Shown here piece by piece: positions 45,145 to 60,724 of a stretch of DNA of 64,000 nt; positions within the stretch are counted from its first letter, which is position 1, and each line of letters opens with the position of its first letter. The notes beneath the pieces were generated by a model. That model was given only the letters and a program-made list of their open reading frames with translations, made no database searches and was not told the DNA's origin. The position numbers were made by a program, and so were the translations under genes. Origin of the DNA: Patescibacteria group bacterium (lineage in GTDB: Bacteria; Patescibacteriota; Patescibacteriia; 2-12-FULL-57-11); assembly GCA_004297205.1 (NCBI GenBank), contig SCUL01000002.1, positions 530,893 through 594,892 of the forward strand, read 5' to 3'.

Positions 45145-45173
45145 TTGACAAAAACTCCTGGCTGTGATAGCCT
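45145..45173 (+). promoter_or_regulatory. sigma70 promoter
   Basis: TTGACA-17bp-TAGCCT with TG extension. Confidence 0.75.
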
Positions 45174-45179
45174 CTCCCG

Positions 45180-45850
45180 TTCTGCCCGAAAACCCTTCGG
45201 GTAGGAGGACCTCAAAAAACGTACGCCAGCCCGTTGTGGAGGAGAGAGTCCCGCCGTTCCCTTTTCCAAAAGGTAGGGCGGGATGGGATCCCCCGCGCCG
45301 CTGCGGCTTCGGCTGCACCCGGCCGCGCCAGGGAACCCGCACCCCGAGGAGTCTTCGGACACACCCGGGATTCGTCTCCACAACGGGACGGCGCACTTGC
45401 CCCGTCGCATGACGGGGCGCCATCTGCGTAAACGCATGGAGGAGAGAGTCCCGCCTTCCTTTCAAAAAAGGAGTGGCGGGAATACGCGGCACGAACGGTA
45501 CCACTTGGGCTTCGGCTCGACCGGTTCCGGGATGGCCGCGCGGACGGCCGCCCTTCGGGGCAACGTCGTCCATTCCCTCCAGTCGCTTCCGCAGATGTAA
45601 ACAGAGTGGCCGCACCGACCGGGGAGGGGCGCATTGCTGCGATCGCCCTTTCAAACATCACAAGACCGTTTCCCCTCCCCCGTCGGCGCGGTACACAGTT
45701 GCCCGATGTTCGAAGGACCGTCCGCGCGATCCTGTTCGTGCCGACCGTCCTTCGGAAACATCTGAAGGCTCTGGTGCCCCGCCTAAAGCGGGGATTTGCG
45801 TCTTAGCGGACGCGGGAGACGGAGCGATCCGGCTTCGTTTTGGAGGAGCA
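45180..45850 (+). ncRNA. candidate large (~670 nt) structured ncRNA / 5' leader with two similar domains
   Basis: Contiguous stems; TGGAGGAGAGAGTCCCGCC at 45237 and 45437; several TTCG loops. Confidence 0.65.
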
Positions 45851-45852
45851 GC

Positions 45853-47256
45853 ATGGTGACTACCAACAGCCACGAGTCGAGGCGACAGGCCATCCGGGCC
45901 ATGCTCGTCGACGGCGTAACGCAGTGCATGGGCGAGGCGGCCACCGGCAAGGTGTGCAGCCGGATCCACGGCACGGCCGTCCCGTCGTTCGACGGGCGGC
46001 ACTCGATTCCGATCCGCTTCGAGAAGGGCGCGCTCGTGCACGGGGAGATCGTCTTCCTGTGCTCGCTCTGCGCGATCTTCGCGAAGAAGGCGGGGCTCGA
46101 CGTCCTCCCGCTCGACGAGCTCGAGCGCCGCGTGCTGGACACGCTCGGTGAGGCACCCGCCGCACCGGCCGCATCCCCGCCCGTGGCGGCTCCGCCGCCC
46201 GTGATGCCCGCCGTCGGCCGCGTGCCGGCCGTCCGCAAGGACGCGCTGGAACAGCCGGATGTCGCGCGCCCGCAGGCTCCGGCTCCCCGCAAGGAAGAGC
46301 CGATGCTCCAGGCCAAGCGCGGACCGCACCCGCGGTCGGCCCGAGGCCACTTCGTGTGCCTCGAGTCGAGCCGGGTGTTCGAGGAGATCTTCGTCCTCAA
46401 GACGAACAACCTCTGCAGCTGCGGCGCGTGCGACGTGAAGGCCGGCAAGGGCTTCGCGACGCGCAACGGCGACTACACGGGCGCCCGGTTCCCGATCTGC
46501 CCCGTTGGCATCGAGGCCGCGCTGCGCGTCTGCAGCACGGTCCGGCGGGCCGGCGGCAAGCCGGTCTACCTCATCTTCCGGGACGAGGCCGACTGGCAGA
46601 GGTTCGACGAGCGGCGCAAGTACGACGTCGCGCGCGACGCAGCCCGCGGCCACGCCGTCCTCGACGGCGAGCTCGGGAACGATGCCAACGACGTCTGCGC
46701 GGTGTTCATCTGCCGGGCCCCGAAGCCGACGGATCGCGTGGCGACGTTCGATGCGGTGCACAACCTCTTCATCGAGCATCGCATCTGCGGCCGCTGCGCC
46801 CAGTCCGCGCGCAAGCTCAGCAACCAGCTGCGCGAAGGCGGACAGCGCTGGGCCTTCCAGCTGCTGCGCGAGGGTCAGAAGCTGACCCCCAAGCAGCAGG
46901 ACGACCTGCGCCGCGCCGCGAAGCAGCGCCGCAAGGCGACGCCCGCGGCGAAGCAGTCGACGATCTCGTCGTCCGCCCCCAAGGGTTCGGCGCCCCCGGC
47001 GCCGAGCGCGGGCAAACCCTCGTTCGGCGAACAAATCGCCAAGGCAGGCCGGAACATCAAGGCCAAGCAGGCCGAGGACGCCGCGCCGGCCGCAGTCGCG
47101 TCCGCAACGCCGGAGCCGGAGGCCGCCGAGGCCGCCGCACCGGATTCCTCGGAGCCCGCCGCCGAGCCGACGATCGCGTCGGTTTCGGAGGCGGCGCCCG
47201 AAGCACCCGCACCCGCATCGCCCCAGGAGGGACCGATGGGCGGCGGGGCGGGCTGA
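45853..47256 (+). CDS. orphan protein with three putative zinc-finger modules and a disordered Ala/Pro/Glu tail
   Basis: GGAGGAG RBS; QC..VC/FLCSLC, CSCGAC/ICPVG, CAVFIC/RICGRC. Confidence 0.75.
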   Translation: MVTTNSHESRRQAIRAMLVDGVTQCMGEAATGKVCSRIHGTAVPSFDGRHSIPIRFEKGALVHGEIVFLCSLCAIFAKKAGLDVLPLDELERRVLDTLGEAPAAPAASPPVAAPPPVMPAVGRVPAVRKDALEQPDVARPQAPAPRKEEPMLQAKRGPHPRSARGHFVCLESSRVFEEIFVLKTNNLCSCGACDVKAGKGFATRNGDYTGARFPICPVGIEAALRVCSTVRRAGGKPVYLIFRDEADWQRFDERRKYDVARDAARGHAVLDGELGNDANDVCAVFICRAPKPTDRVATFDAVHNLFIEHRICGRCAQSARKLSNQLREGGQRWAFQLLREGQKLTPKQQDDLRRAAKQRRKATPAAKQSTISSSAPKGSAPPAPSAGKPSFGEQIAKAGRNIKAKQAEDAAPAAVASATPEPEAAEAAAPDSSEPAAEPTIASVSEAAPEAPAPASPQEGPMGGGAG

Positions 47257-47408
47257 CGGAAACGTCACCAGTGGCACCGGGCAGCCCCGTCAAGGCGGGG
47301 CACCCGAACGGCAGACGGGATTCCCTCCCCCGTCTGCCGCTCTCTCTCGACAGCATCGCCCCGTAAGCGGTGCTGTGGAGTCAGAGCAGACTCCGAGGAG
47401 AAACAAAC

Positions 47409-47909
47409 ATGTCGGTGAAGAATACCCTCACGCTCACGGCTCAGGACGAGACGACCATCGCCAAGCTGCTCGGCTTCAAGTCCCTCAAGGGCTTCATGGT
47501 CGAGGCATGGACGGCGAAGGACGGCGTCCACGTCGTGCACATCCGCGGCGAGGAGCAGAACGGCAGCACGCCGCGCTTCGAGATCCGACTGGTCCGCGAC
47601 GGGGCCGAGGCGCCGTTCGCCCAGGCCCCGACGAACCAGAACGTCCGCGTGCTGCGCGACCTGATCGAGAAGCGCGGTCTCGCGGAGATCGACCTCGACG
47701 CCTTCGCGCAGGCGCGGCAGCACAAGGGGATCCCGCTCGCGATGGACAACTGGCGGGACGGCCTGCGCCGGGCGGTCGCGCAGCTGCGGGACATCTACCG
47801 CCAGCGCATGCTGCCGATGATGCAGGAGGTCGAGCGGCTCGAGGCCTTCCTCGCGTCCCAGGCGGCGTCGAAGCCGGCCGTCGAGGCCGAGCCCCTCGCC
47901 GCGGAGTAG
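47409..47909 (+). CDS. orphan protein with C-terminal helical/coiled-coil region
   Basis: GAGGAG RBS; 166 aa; strong coding-like codon bias. Confidence 0.75.
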   Translation: MSVKNTLTLTAQDETTIAKLLGFKSLKGFMVEAWTAKDGVHVVHIRGEEQNGSTPRFEIRLVRDGAEAPFAQAPTNQNVRVLRDLIEKRGLAEIDLDAFAQARQHKGIPLAMDNWRDGLRRAVAQLRDIYRQRMLPMMQEVERLEAFLASQAASKPAVEAEPLAAE

Positions 47910-47915
47910 CGGCCC

Positions 47916-47943
47916 CGCGCCTGCCTACCGGCAGGCAGGCGCG
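47916..47943. repeat. short palindromic REP-like element (CCTGCCTACCGGCAGGCAGG)
   Basis: CGCGCCTGCCT-ACCGGC-AGGCAGGCGCG, 11-bp stem. Confidence 0.65.
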
Positions 47944-47945
47944 AC

Positions 47946-47989
47946 GACGGCAGGTGTGGGTATAAACCCCGCCTGCCGTCTTCTTTTTG
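47946..47989 (+). terminator. intrinsic terminator
   Basis: GACGGCAGG...CCTGCCGTC followed by TTCTTTTT. Confidence 0.75.
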
Positions 47990-47991
47990 TA

Positions 47992-48020
47992 TTGACACGG
48001 AGGAAAGGCGCGCTTATATT
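47992..48020 (+). promoter_or_regulatory. sigma70 promoter
   Basis: TTGACA-17bp-TATATT. Confidence 0.8.
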
Positions 48021-48026
48021 CGAGAG

Positions 48027-48248
48027 TGCTTCGCGCGCGCCAGGCTGCGAAGCGGGGAAGGCCTCCACAGTCCCGTTCGACGAGCCCCCGCGTGCACCGC
48101 GCAAGCGGTCCGGCGGGTTTCTCTCTCCTCGTTCCTCGGTCCGACCGCGGACCAGGAACTGCTCCGACGACTGGGCATGGGGAGACGCTTGGCCCCGGTT
48201 TGCAGCCTCCCGCGGACGAAGAAGCCGCCGGATTTTCCGGCGGCTTTT
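48027..48248 (+). ncRNA. candidate ~220-nt stand-alone structured sRNA
   Basis: Own promoter and terminator (AAGCCGCCGG-ATTTT-CCGGCGGCTTTT); long stem 48042-48208; no plausible ORF. Confidence 0.7.
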
Positions 48249-48290
48249 GCATTGGCGGCGGCCGGAGAAATCAAGTACCATGCCGCTGTT

Positions 48291-50561
48291 ATGGCCAAGA
48301 AACGCAAGAAGAAAGAAGAGGAAGCCGACGCGCCTGAGATCACCGTCAGCCCAGAAACGCAGCGCGGCATCCTCGTGGTTTTTTTGTGCGCCGCGGCCGT
48401 CCTGGCCGGGCTGTCGTACTTCGGAGCGGCGGGTCCTTTGGGAAGCTGGGTGGACCGGATGCTCACGAGTCTCTTTGGTTGGGACCGGCTGATCTTCGTC
48501 GGGATCCTGCTCCTCCTCTCTTATAAGGCCATCTCCCCTGAGCGCTTCCGCCTCGGGATGGCCGGCGGCATCGGCTTCTCCCTGCTCGTCTTCTGCGTGA
48601 ACGGTTTGATCCAGCTCGTCACCATGGTGGCCGAACCCGCGGCCGTCCCGTGGATGCAGGGCGGCGGCCTGGTGGGGCTGTTCCTGGCATACCCGCTCTT
48701 GTCTGTGCTCGGCACGTGGGGCGCGGGCGTGGTGCTGCTCGCACTCTTGGCCGCCTCGTTCCTGCTGACCTTCAACCTGACCTTGCGTCAGATGGGATTC
48801 ATCGGCGCGCCGATCCGCTGGATCATGGCGCTGGTCGGCGCCAAGCCCGGACCGGCCGCGCCCAGGGTGCACGTCTTGGACGGCGGCGAACCGGCGGAGG
48901 ACGAGAGCGAGGAAGAATCCGAGGAGGAAGAAACGGAACCGGAAGACGAAGCCGAGCGTTTCAAGAGCCGCACGGTCGAAGTGACCGTCTCGAAGAGCGA
49001 GCAGGAGATGCCGGAACCGGCGCCGCGCAAGCACCGGCCGATGATTTCCGTGCCGCTGGAGCTCCTGAACGCGCGCACCACCAAACCACAATCCGGCGAC
49101 ATCCATCGGATCGCCGAACGCATCCGCGCCACGCTCGAACAGTTCGGCATTCCGGTCGAAATGGGCGATGTCTCGGTCGGTCCCACCGTCACGCAGTACA
49201 CCTTCAAGCCGCAGGAAGGCATCAAGCTCACCCGCATCACCGGCCTCTCCAACGATCTGGCGCTGGCGCTCGCCGCGCACCCCATCCGCATCGAAGCGCC
49301 GATTCCCGGGAAGTCCTTGGTCGGCGTCGAAGTCCCCAACCAGACCGTGGCCCTGGTGCCGCTGCGCGAAGTGCTCGAGGGCCGCGAGTTCCGTGAACGC
49401 ACCAGCCCGCTCACCATCGGACTCGGCAAAGACGTGGCCGGCAAAGGCTGGACCGCGGCCATCGACAAGATGCCACACCTGCTCGTGGCCGGTTCGACCG
49501 GCTCCGGCAAATCGGTCTGTCTCAACACCATCATCATCTCGCTGCTCTACGAGAACGGTCCGGACGACCTGCGCTTCATCATGGTCGACCCCAAGCGCGT
49601 CGAGCTGACCGTCTACAACGGCATTCCGCATCTCGTCACTCCGGTCATCACCGACGTGCCGAAGACCGTGAACGCGCTCAAGTGGTCGATCGGCGAAATG
49701 GAACGGCGCTTCGACCTGCTGTCGAAGGCCGGCAAACGCGACATCAAGGGATATAACGCCACGGCGCCGGAGAAACTTCCCTACCTCGTCATCATCATCG
49801 ACGAGTTGGCCGACCTGATGGTCGCAGCCGCGGCGGAAGTGGAAGGCTCGATCGTGCGCATCGCCCAGATGGCGCGCGCCGTGGGCATCCACCTGATTCT
49901 CGCCACCCAGCGCCCCTCGGTCGACGTCATCACCGGACTCATCAAGGCCAACGTCACGACGCGCATCGCTTTTGCCGTGGCCTCGCTCATCGACTCGCGC
50001 ACCATCCTCGACACCTCCGGCGCCGAAAAACTGCTCGGCCGCGGCGACATGCTGTTCACGAACGCCGAGCTGTCCAAGCCCAAGCGCATCCAGGGCTGTT
50101 TCGTCTCCGAAGACGAAATCAAGAAAGTCACCGACTACATCACGGACAAGTACGGCCGCGCCGAGTACACCGACGGCGTCACGGAAAAGAACGCCGGCGG
50201 TTCGACCACGATTTTCGGCGACAGCGACGCCGATCCGCTGCTTGAAGAAGCGCGCGTCACCGTGGTGCGCGCCGGCAAGGCCTCGGCCTCGCTCCTGCAG
50301 CGCCGCCTCAAGGTGGGCTACGCCCGCGCCGCGCGCCTGCTCGACCTCTTGGAGGAAGCCGGCATCATCGGGCCGGGCGACGGCGCCAAACCGCGCGAGA
50401 TCCTGGTCACGGATGTGGAACTCTCCGAAGGCATGACCGGCGGAGATGACGGCGAGGAGGTCGTCGATATGGCATCCGATGTCACTAAAGATGACATGGG
50501 CGACGATGACGACGGAGACGAGTCCGATGAAAAGGAGGAAGAAAGCACGACAGCGGCATGA
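48291..50561 (+). CDS. ftsK: DNA translocase FtsK (4TM + motor + gamma domain)
   Basis: PHLLVAGSTGSGKS, DPKRVEL, DELADLM, ATQRPSVDVITG, LQRRLKVGYARA. Confidence 0.97.
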   Translation: MAKKRKKKEEEADAPEITVSPETQRGILVVFLCAAAVLAGLSYFGAAGPLGSWVDRMLTSLFGWDRLIFVGILLLLSYKAISPERFRLGMAGGIGFSLLVFCVNGLIQLVTMVAEPAAVPWMQGGGLVGLFLAYPLLSVLGTWGAGVVLLALLAASFLLTFNLTLRQMGFIGAPIRWIMALVGAKPGPAAPRVHVLDGGEPAEDESEEESEEEETEPEDEAERFKSRTVEVTVSKSEQEMPEPAPRKHRPMISVPLELLNARTTKPQSGDIHRIAERIRATLEQFGIPVEMGDVSVGPTVTQYTFKPQEGIKLTRITGLSNDLALALAAHPIRIEAPIPGKSLVGVEVPNQTVALVPLREVLEGREFRERTSPLTIGLGKDVAGKGWTAAIDKMPHLLVAGSTGSGKSVCLNTIIISLLYENGPDDLRFIMVDPKRVELTVYNGIPHLVTPVITDVPKTVNALKWSIGEMERRFDLLSKAGKRDIKGYNATAPEKLPYLVIIIDELADLMVAAAAEVEGSIVRIAQMARAVGIHLILATQRPSVDVITGLIKANVTTRIAFAVASLIDSRTILDTSGAEKLLGRGDMLFTNAELSKPKRIQGCFVSEDEIKKVTDYITDKYGRAEYTDGVTEKNAGGSTTIFGDSDADPLLEEARVTVVRAGKASASLLQRRLKVGYARAARLLDLLEEAGIIGPGDGAKPREILVTDVELSEGMTGGDDGEEVVDMASDVTKDDMGDDDDGDESDEKEEESTTAA

Positions 50562-59557: not shown

Positions 59558-60724
59558 ATGACAACCGATCGCAAGCCCTCGCCGCTGCCCGCAGCTGGCG
59601 GGCTCGCGGGCATCTCCACAAAGACGGTCTTCACGCCGAAGATGATCGAGCGAATGCGGCTCGACGGCAAGACCCAGGTCCTCCTTCCCGGAGCCACGCT
59701 CTGGGAGGTCGGCCAGAAGGCCGCCCGCACCTACCACCTCGTGCACGGGACGCTGGCGGTGATCGTCGACAACACGCCGGTCGCCGAGATCAACGAAGGC
59801 CAGCTCGTCGGTGAGCTCGAGATGCTCTTCAACGAGCCGTACGCCTCCACGGTACGTTCCGTGACTGACGCGGAACTCATCGTCTTCTCGAAGGCGGAGT
59901 TCCAGCTCATGCTGCGGAACACCGAGGCGGGCTACACGGTCATCCGGCTCTTCGCCGAGCGGGTGAGGGCGGCTCACCGCGCCCTGGCCGGACGCACCGC
60001 GCGCGTCGTCTCTCTCGAGCAGGACATCCGGGACCTGGCCACGCGCCAGCACCAGGAGCTTGAGGAGAAGAAGCGTGAATTCGACGATCTCGGCGAGCGG
60101 CTGTTGGTTGCCGAAAAGCAGGTCGAGGAGGCCGAGCGCATGCGGCAGGCCTACGACATGAACCTGCAGGTCGCCGACGCGCGGATCCTCCTGCTCGAAC
60201 AAGCACTCCGCGCTGCCAATCTCGAGGTCACGCGGGACGGTGTCACCAGCCGCATCTTCCCGCGCCCGATCGACGCCTCGCTCGAGGCCGAGATCAGCGC
60301 GGAACTCGATGCGTTGACACCGCCGCCGCTGCCCCCACCTCTGCCGGTCGCAAGGATCGGTCTGACGCGGGTCGCCGTGCCTCGGCCGAACACCCCGGTG
60401 TTCACGGAGGAAGGTCCGCCGACCGACGTGACGCCGGTCGCTCCCGACAGCGAGATGCTCGCGGCGGTCGAAGGACCGCTCGAGTCCGACACCGGGAAGG
60501 TGGCCGTGCCGCCGCCGATCCGGCGCCGGGAGCCGGTCCCCGTGGGCGCACGCACCCAGAACATGGTGGCGTTCGACCCGGACGCACCCCGGATGGAGAT
60601 CACCATCGACGAGAATGGCGCGCGCGTCACCTCGCCGCCCGCCGTGCCGGATCTCGACAGGGAGACGGATAGTCTCATCGCGGAAATCCTCCACATCACG
60701 CCGGACACCACGCCCAAGAAGTAG
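59558..60724 (+). CDS. cyclic-nucleotide-binding-like domain + coiled coil + Pro-rich tail
   Basis: GAGGAG RBS; PG..L..G....Y.LV.G...GQLVGE...STVRS.TD..L; heptad region. Confidence 0.75.
   Translation: MTTDRKPSPLPAAGGLAGISTKTVFTPKMIERMRLDGKTQVLLPGATLWEVGQKAARTYHLVHGTLAVIVDNTPVAEINEGQLVGELEMLFNEPYASTVRSVTDAELIVFSKAEFQLMLRNTEAGYTVIRLFAERVRAAHRALAGRTARVVSLEQDIRDLATRQHQELEEKKREFDDLGERLLVAEKQVEEAERMRQAYDMNLQVADARILLLEQALRAANLEVTRDGVTSRIFPRPIDASLEAEISAELDALTPPPLPPPLPVARIGLTRVAVPRPNTPVFTEEGPPTDVTPVAPDSEMLAAVEGPLESDTGKVAVPPPIRRREPVPVGARTQNMVAFDPDAPRMEITIDENGARVTSPPAVPDLDRETDSLIAEILHITPDTTPKK

Follow-up and report, generated by a model that had tools for sequence, protein, structure and literature searches.

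The stretch of DNA analysed here (the window, 64,000 nucleotides from a Patescibacteria genome, G000, of 1.09 Mb and rated 99% complete) carries at 47992-48250 a gene for a small non-coding RNA, followed by ftsK (48291-50561, + strand; Pfam FtsK domains and synteny). The gene opens with a sigma70-type promoter, TTGACA-17-TATATT (47992-48020, +), which has 11/12 matches and a predicted +1 near 48026-48027. The promoter scan calls no other in 47000-49500, where shuffled sequences give 0.1 ± 0.4. The hexamers are identical in the relatives G001 and G002, and promoters of 10-12/12 lie ahead of many homologues of the RNA.

The minimum free energy (MFE) fold of 48020-48260 (-135.1 kcal/mol, z = -4.58; none of 200 shuffles equally stable) is a long imperfect rod that ends in a junction with two hairpins. 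The 5' strand of the rod (48029-48085, +) ends in GAGC (48082-48085) and the 3' strand (48161-48221, +) starts with GCUC; both are placed by the fold and by covariation, that of the 5' strand in its basal part. Near the base, AGGCTGCGAAGCGGGG (48042-48057) and CCCCGGTTTGCAGCCT (48193-48208) contain the two sides of a conserved helix, CUGCG (48045-48049, +) and UGCAG (48201-48205). The left (48087-48117, +) and right (48131-48159, +) apical hairpins, defined by fold and alignment, are variable and are missing in many homologues. Between them lies a single-stranded loop of 13 nt, UUUCUCUCUCCUC (TTTCTCTCTCCTC at 48118-48130, +), with a conserved core, UCUCUCUCCUC, at 48120-48130; its mean unpaired probability in G000 is 0.99. 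An intrinsic-terminator-like hairpin (48222-48244) with a 4-U tail closes the gene (48222-48248, +), and the predicted 3' end at the tail gives an RNA of about 222 nt. The hairpin was seen directly in sequence and fold; the terminator scan did not call it because the tail has only four U.

The locus lacks a credible ORF: a 103-aa GTG frame at 48026 shifts frame in G002 and meets indels in G001. Since the frames crossing it shift among G000, G001 and G002, the locus is non-coding. A hexamer upstream of ftsK, TACCAT (48276-48281, +), recurs at the same place in G001-G003 and is likely to serve as the -10 box of an ftsK promoter that is separate and gives a short leader. The original prediction of a stand-alone RNA with a near-consensus promoter, a terminator, no ORF, a long rod and an unpaired loop between two hairpins was thus borne out. 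That the RNA is more than a 5' UTR of ftsK is supported by the separate -10 box and by relatives in which the RNA sits next to other genes or faces convergent ones. The Y shape given there as the defining feature did not survive, as the arms vary among homologues. At the level of sequence the RNA has its own transcription unit, as do small RNAs (sRNAs) with C/U-rich loops. As a separate observation, the 3' strand of the rod contains an ATG that shares the ftsK reading frame, and this stretch (48177-48290) stays open in all three of G000, G001 and G002 although indels occur. The ATG was not seen in G003, and it may be a chance occurrence or may provide an N-terminal extension on read-through transcripts.

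Spread and anatomy of the family

The RNA belongs to a real, widespread and undescribed small-RNA family of Patescibacteria. It is found in 42 genomes, 35 in the class of G000 and 7 in other classes; about 154 genomes of the class and 284 of other classes were searched, and the member counts are lower bounds. Five of the 42 are tentative: in G021 a contig end cuts the RNA, the fold of G025 has z = -1.3, the motif of G046 is predicted to be paired, and the loops of G031 and G060 are less open. At least 12 metagenome contigs also carry the RNA (12 loci, two of them near-duplicates, kept from 80 listed among at least 117 found). One copy per genome is the rule. Apart from G025, the homologues that were tested against shuffles (10 of 11) have z values of -5.4 to -11.4.

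Sequence similarity alone reaches only close kin: a BLAST-type DNA search gave two strong matches in 60 other genomes, both of the same genus. The 11-mer UCUCUCUCCUC is present in 34 of 60 class genomes, and an RNA model, R1, matches 9 of 151. Members were gathered by folding of matches, by R1 and a second model, R2, and by further patterns. R2 is a sequence-only model whose E-values near 0.01-0.05 are mostly chance; of its new matches 35 were folded and 13 retained, and 37 weaker class matches lie outside the folded set, four of which were examined through other searches. Among 40 regions around the 11-mer, 10 were kept and 30 dropped as coding matches, reverse-strand ribosome-binding sites (RBSs) or leaders. 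Of 30 loci from across the phylum seven were kept (six new, and G051 again), and a single match in a viral contig proved to be a non-member. Most members were located via the loop motif, so the invariance of the loop is partly built in. When regions upstream of ftsK were inspected blind to the motif, exact UCUCUCUCCUC was present in 5 of 35 (G003, G006, G044, G018 and G046), and one further region, in G055, held a loop variant.

Two elements are conserved in sequence: the CUG(CG)/(YG)CAG helix near the base and the CU loop, usually with A's before it. In an alignment of 21 members, the basal rod has changes on both sides at 20 of 26 pairs, and 86.9% of its cells are paired, as against 38-45% with slid partners. 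Ten of these rows were picked by both elements (nine metagenome rows, plus the pattern that cut all rows), and the invariance of helix and loop in this alignment is partly built in by that selection. Independent support comes from the family-level alignment, the murJ-linked members and a family of another class, f99; the last two were found by the loop alone, and the helix is nonetheless present. CUGCG is invariant in the 7 rows of the family-level alignment, which were not chosen by the helix, and CUG is kept at 90% or more in the 23 rows of a further alignment.

The rest of the molecule is plastic. The RNAs range from 90 to 220 nt and the rods from about 22 to more than 55 pairs; internal loops are small and asymmetric (about 0-5 by 2-10 nt), and no large bubble is seen. 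The distance from helix to junction varies from about 5 bp in f99 to about 30 bp in family f1. A left arm only, a right arm only, both or none may be present, and the loop lies 5' of the sole arm in some members, 3' in others and is terminal in G025. Whatever the arm layout, the mean unpaired probability of the loop is 0.8-1.0 in 24 of 28 members and 0.66-0.74 in four, the exception being G046, where the motif is predicted to be paired (unpaired probability 0.25). The constant design, as modelled, is a stable rod with paired ends presenting one single-stranded CU segment, and a conserved unpaired C/U loop on covarying stems is what the C/U-rich-loop class of sRNAs also has.

Natural variants locate the best-kept part of the loop. 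G074 (UCUCUCUCUUU), G205 (UCUCUCUUCUC) and G055, whose loop is UCUC only, lack the core complementary to the Shine-Dalgarno (SD) sequence; their 16S tails are unchanged. The loop changes in G002, G074 and G205 are C-to-U, and across members a pyrimidine is retained in all changes but one. The part that survives the loss of CUCC is the (UC)n run. The G055 variant (L032, 3715-3879, minus strand) lies upstream of ftsK and keeps the CUGCG/UGCAG helix. Between its two arms stands UCUC only, and its internal loops are more symmetric and rich in A; it is in effect a natural loop mutant.

Complementarity to ribosome-binding sites

The original prediction held that the loop could pair with purine-rich RBSs of orphan genes and act as a repressor or a translation adaptor. 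The RBSs that it quoted are present before 45853, 47409, 59558 and 22596; the gene at 59558 encodes a cNMP-binding domain and is not a pure orphan. The 3' half of the loop, CUCCUC, complements GAGGAG, and the loop complement, GAGGAGAGAGA, amounts to an SD sequence followed by an AG spacer. GGAG peaks 5-6 nt before starts in G000. SD-led genes are few in this genome: among 1024 genes from our own simple caller, which is not a curated annotation, 110 called starts have a strong SD and 103 are AGGAG-led. The genes rpoB, rpoC, ftsK and recA (rpoB, rpoC and recA named from translations) have no SD before the start. Orphan genes stand behind the best complementary sites, and in the window SD-like sites precede 6 of 17 genes without a Pfam match vs 4 of 39 with one (p = 0.05). 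The called starts of genes without an SD have T at -1 in 55% of cases, and in many of these genes a -10-like box lies 6-15 nt ahead of the ATG; this sequence pattern suggests that core genes have very short leaders.

The evidence for pairing with these sites is divided. AGGAG followed by AGA occurs in 7 of the 103 SD-led genes vs 2.4 expected (p = 0.011), a mild enrichment. If CUCCUC is kept constant and the 5' half is varied over the 32 pyrimidine 5-mers, the native UCUCU comes 27th in mean pairing with the SD regions of these 103 genes; the loop is therefore not tuned to SD sequences as such. The GAGGAG hexamer by itself shows no targeting, since it occurs 975 times in the genome. The exact 10-nt complement, GAGGAGAGAG, has four sites in G000 outside the RNA, all intergenic; two are in the leader of the adjoining orphan operon and two on the antisense strand of other leaders. 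The leader sites are candidate targets at 45239-45248 (+; kept in G001 and G002) and 45439-45448 (+; kept in G001), with predicted loop hybrids of -23 to -35 kcal/mol. In the leader fold as predicted, most of both sites is paired, and the pairing in G000 extends over 6 further bp that are not conserved at the site in G002. The complement before 47409 is likewise not kept in the G002 orthologue.

Sites of the form RGGAGAGA-N1-7-ATG occur in 40 of 41 carrier genomes, a count for which the reversed-pattern control does not tell targeting by the loop apart from plain SD usage. From 150 matches listed, with 135 more beyond the list, 60 sites were fetched, and they include 35 open frames of at least 45 aa; 31 of these frames have no Pfam match, and two of the four that do have one start at internal methionines. 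No recurring target family was seen, there being no BLASTP pair among the 35 candidate proteins from the matches listed. Such turnover of targets is hard to square with a loop that is kept across classes, and counts against pairing. Of the two roles proposed for the loop, that of translation adaptor was dropped: G000 and four relatives share a normal anti-SD tail of 16S rRNA, CACCUCCUUUCU, so an adaptor is not needed. The rRNA operon of G000 has no 10-nt loop complement, even when G-U pairs are allowed, and the best duplex of the loop with 16S rRNA is -15.2 kcal/mol.

Several leaders carry related sequences and deserve mention in their own right. About 680 nt separate a TTGACA promoter-like site from the 467-aa orphan at 45853 (window 45145-45853). 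This stretch has no Rfam match and forms a structured leader of its own; it contains two repeats, TGGAGGAGAGAG followed by a hairpin, which are kept in G001 and partly in G002. Ahead of clpP in G059 stands GAGGAGAGAGA (L068, G059:C18, 846-870), which complements the loop exactly over 11 nt and can itself pair with an upstream CTCTCCCC; clpP of G000 lacks GAGGAGAGAGA. At G000:C2:684300-688400 (minus), about seven small orphan genes are separated by repeated elements of 60-110 nt, in which CUCUCCUC can pair in cis with a downstream GAGGAG SD and alternative upstream pairings exist. The array shares its 8-mer with the loop of the RNA, and its layout suggests gene cassettes governed by translational switches. 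The long structured leader of a 124-aa gene (G000:C2:627559-628160, minus; L096 in G001) holds the same 11-mer as the loop of the RNA, TCTCTCTCCTC, which can pair in cis with AGAGAGA and is kept in G001. The product of this gene may be DksA/TraR-like.

Mechanism and relation to known loop RNAs

Our tentative reading, to which we give somewhat less than even chances, is that the RNA acts in trans as an sRNA that base-pairs, independently of Hfq, with AGGAGAGA-type RBSs of lineage-specific genes and lowers their translation. The stable rod would present the exposed UCUCUCUCCUC loop, which would pair, without Hfq, with these sites and so damp translation of SD-led, mostly orphan genes; the core genes rpoB, rpoC, ftsK and recA, starting without an SD, would be immune. 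The paired 5' and 3' ends may protect the RNA, and the CUG/CAG helix may bind a protein partner. The RNA would have to be expressed, pair in trans and repress rather than activate. Pairing is supported by the loop being single-stranded whatever the arm layout, on covarying stems, as in the cuckoo and RepG RNAs. The loop variants of G002, G074 and G205 are compatible with it, since G-U pairs tolerate C-to-U changes. Neither Hfq nor Rho was found in five carriers tested. The loop is only partly 'anti-SD', given its rank among pyrimidine 5-mers, the lack of a conserved target among those compared, the three losses of CUCC and the pairing of the leader sites. That the UC run is best kept fits a protein ligand equally well.

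A scaffold or decoy, whose helix and (UC)n loop would each dock conserved RNA-binding proteins (ribosomal protein S1, KhpA or a nuclease, for example) so as to titrate or tether them, is somewhat unlikely in our judgement. It would account for two sequence-invariant modules at variable spacing, for a helix whose sequence is invariant amid covarying pairs, which suggests protein recognition, for the retention of pyrimidines and of the UC run, and for the failure of the searches to find a conserved RNA target. KhpA-type KH proteins and S1-domain proteins are present in all of five carriers, a set overlapping that tested for Hfq and Rho, but this co-occurrence is weak because both are near-universal (KH in 10 and S1 in 14 of 14 control genomes). 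RRM and TROVE proteins are each present in only one of five carriers tested, and no protein gene travels with the RNA in the member neighbourhoods compared. Decoy RNAs usually repeat their motif, whereas the loop motif occurs once in this RNA.

If the base-pairing reading holds, the RNA works like the cuckoo RNAs and RepG, and is a member of neither, since motif, fold and phylum differ and it has no Rfam match. The cuckoo (alpha-r14) sRNAs of Alphaproteobacteria (RF02344) have an invariant C/U-rich, partly anti-SD loop on stems with compensatory changes, consist of 2-4 adjacent hairpins each with CCUCCUCCC, and are Hfq-bound (PMC4615179). The likeness extends to stand-alone genes and to families with which covariance models struggle. 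The Patescibacteria RNA differs in having one UCUCUCUCCUC loop at the tip of an end-to-end rod rather than adjacent CCUCCUCCC hairpins, in the CUG/CAG helix, and in residing in genomes in which Hfq was not found. RepG of Helicobacter pylori pairs through its terminator loop with a G homopolymer of one known operon (PMC8295292). It too has a conserved C/U-rich loop and purine-rich partners in mRNA leaders, the latter here only proposed; in our RNA the loop lies in the apical junction and complements GA repeats, and the targets are candidates. RNAIII and other UCCC-loop sRNAs of Staphylococcus expose a C-rich loop, proposed to be a seed for RBS pairing (PMC4615179); motif, fold and phylum are different, and no sequence relation to them was found. 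From sequence and fold, the RNA is likely to be, in mechanism, a variant of this C/U-loop kind of regulator.

No description of the RNA was found in the mostly openly accessible literature on Patescibacteria/CPR non-coding RNA, 6S RNA, translation initiation and Shine-Dalgarno sequences. A 2026 preprint on prokaryotic non-coding space does not mention Patescibacteria, CPR, ftsK, murJ or mraZ in its main text, and its supplements could list the RNA as an unnamed cluster (10.64898/2026.10.21.760802).

Patescibacteria have genomes of about 1 Mb and few regulators, with neither Hfq nor Rho in those tested. Retention of the RNA and of its two invariant elements across several classes of such reduced genomes implies a function that is not easily lost. 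Gating of SD-led orphan genes by the RNA, if real, would account for the ability of these bacteria to live with a large, fast-changing pool of such genes; if the RNA binds protein instead, it would be part of a new ribonucleoprotein. An extension of the pairing reading, which we regard as distinctly unlikely, is that of a class-level silencer: one invariant seed would hold down newly gained genes with AG-rich SDs, and the CUG/CAG helix would recruit a substitute for Hfq. This presumes that the RNA is ancient and that Patescibacteria genes are split into a non-SD core and SD-led orphans. If true, it would be a post-transcriptional counterpart of foreign-DNA silencing. The family offers a testable handle on RNA regulation in the phylum, with a defined loop and helix, natural variants and candidate reporters.

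Genomic setting and comparison with housekeeping RNAs

The tie of the family to division and wall genes is notable. Of the 42 genome members, 29 lie upstream of such a gene on the same strand (ftsK in 15, murJ in 10, mraZ in three and ftsW/rodA in one), although these amount to four placements among kin and are not independent. Such positions are what one would expect of a leader or attenuator acting in cis on cell-division and cell-wall genes, and in G000 the terminator, with only four U, could allow read-through. However, four members face a convergent gene (recA in G004, efp in G118, ftsK in G150 and a methyltransferase gene in G351), which argues that the RNA is not a cis leader, and three metagenome members precede rpoB. 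The placement is thus not always on the same strand upstream of one functional class of genes. Downstream genes also have a separate -10 box, situated a few bases ahead of the ATG. We therefore consider a cis role highly improbable. In G046 the RNA is divergent from clpP, and the remaining members precede a DsbA-like gene, a polyA-polymerase/CCA-family gene or genes without identification.

With Rfam 15 at the gathering score only four tRNAs were matched in the 64-kb window, and at E <= 10 the window and 10 homologue loci gave chance matches only, in keeping with the original view that the RNA is neither SRP RNA nor a typical 6S RNA. The small SRP RNA (RF00169) has no match at E <= 10 anywhere in G000, and 13 of 14 controls match. 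It is improbable, if less so than a cis role, that the RNA binds sigma70 RNA polymerase as a strongly diverged 6S RNA or the remnant of one. The size range, the long rod, the strong promoter of its own and the usual single copy resemble 6S (RF00013; E. coli ssrS), the closing stem of the RF00013 consensus shows CUgcg toward its 5' end, as here, its other blocks not being recognisable in our alignments, and the class has no recognised 6S, RF00013 passing the cut-off in none of 61 class genomes. In G000 no other clear candidate emerged from a promoter-plus-rod scan, the upstream regions of three tRNA-Pro genes or short consensus motifs; ndk was not located in the course of this search, and a weak RF00013 match at C2:497255 (E 9.8) was rejected as lying inside a coding region. 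Against 6S, RF00013, which matches its controls in E. coli and B. subtilis, finds neither the RNA nor the 10 homologue loci at E <= 10, and model R1 does not match ssrS. None of the 28 folded members has long arms on both sides of a large central bubble; past the junction their arms are short or missing. 6S in turn lacks the invariant CU loop. The variable position of this loop fits no single promoter-mimic geometry.

The present RNA recalls Y RNAs in that its ends pair, its basal helix is conserved and its loop is rich in pyrimidines, and G000 has a TROVE gene (Rsr/Ro60; C2:517652-518488, minus, near the rRNA operon). That the RNA is a Y RNA bound by Rsr, the Ro60 orthologue, is nonetheless very improbable: TROVE is absent from four of five carriers tested, three of those four being at least 90% complete, the TROVE gene of G000 is about 60 kb from the RNA, and neither the RNA nor its homologue loci match an Rfam model. 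A Y RNA may lie beside the TROVE gene itself. ARAGORN called no tmRNA in G000; the intergenic region C2:325026-325544 may contain a tmRNA end. Elsewhere in G000, from C2:620649 on the plus strand, a promoter precedes another rod, about 190 nt long and branched at its tip, where no gene is called.
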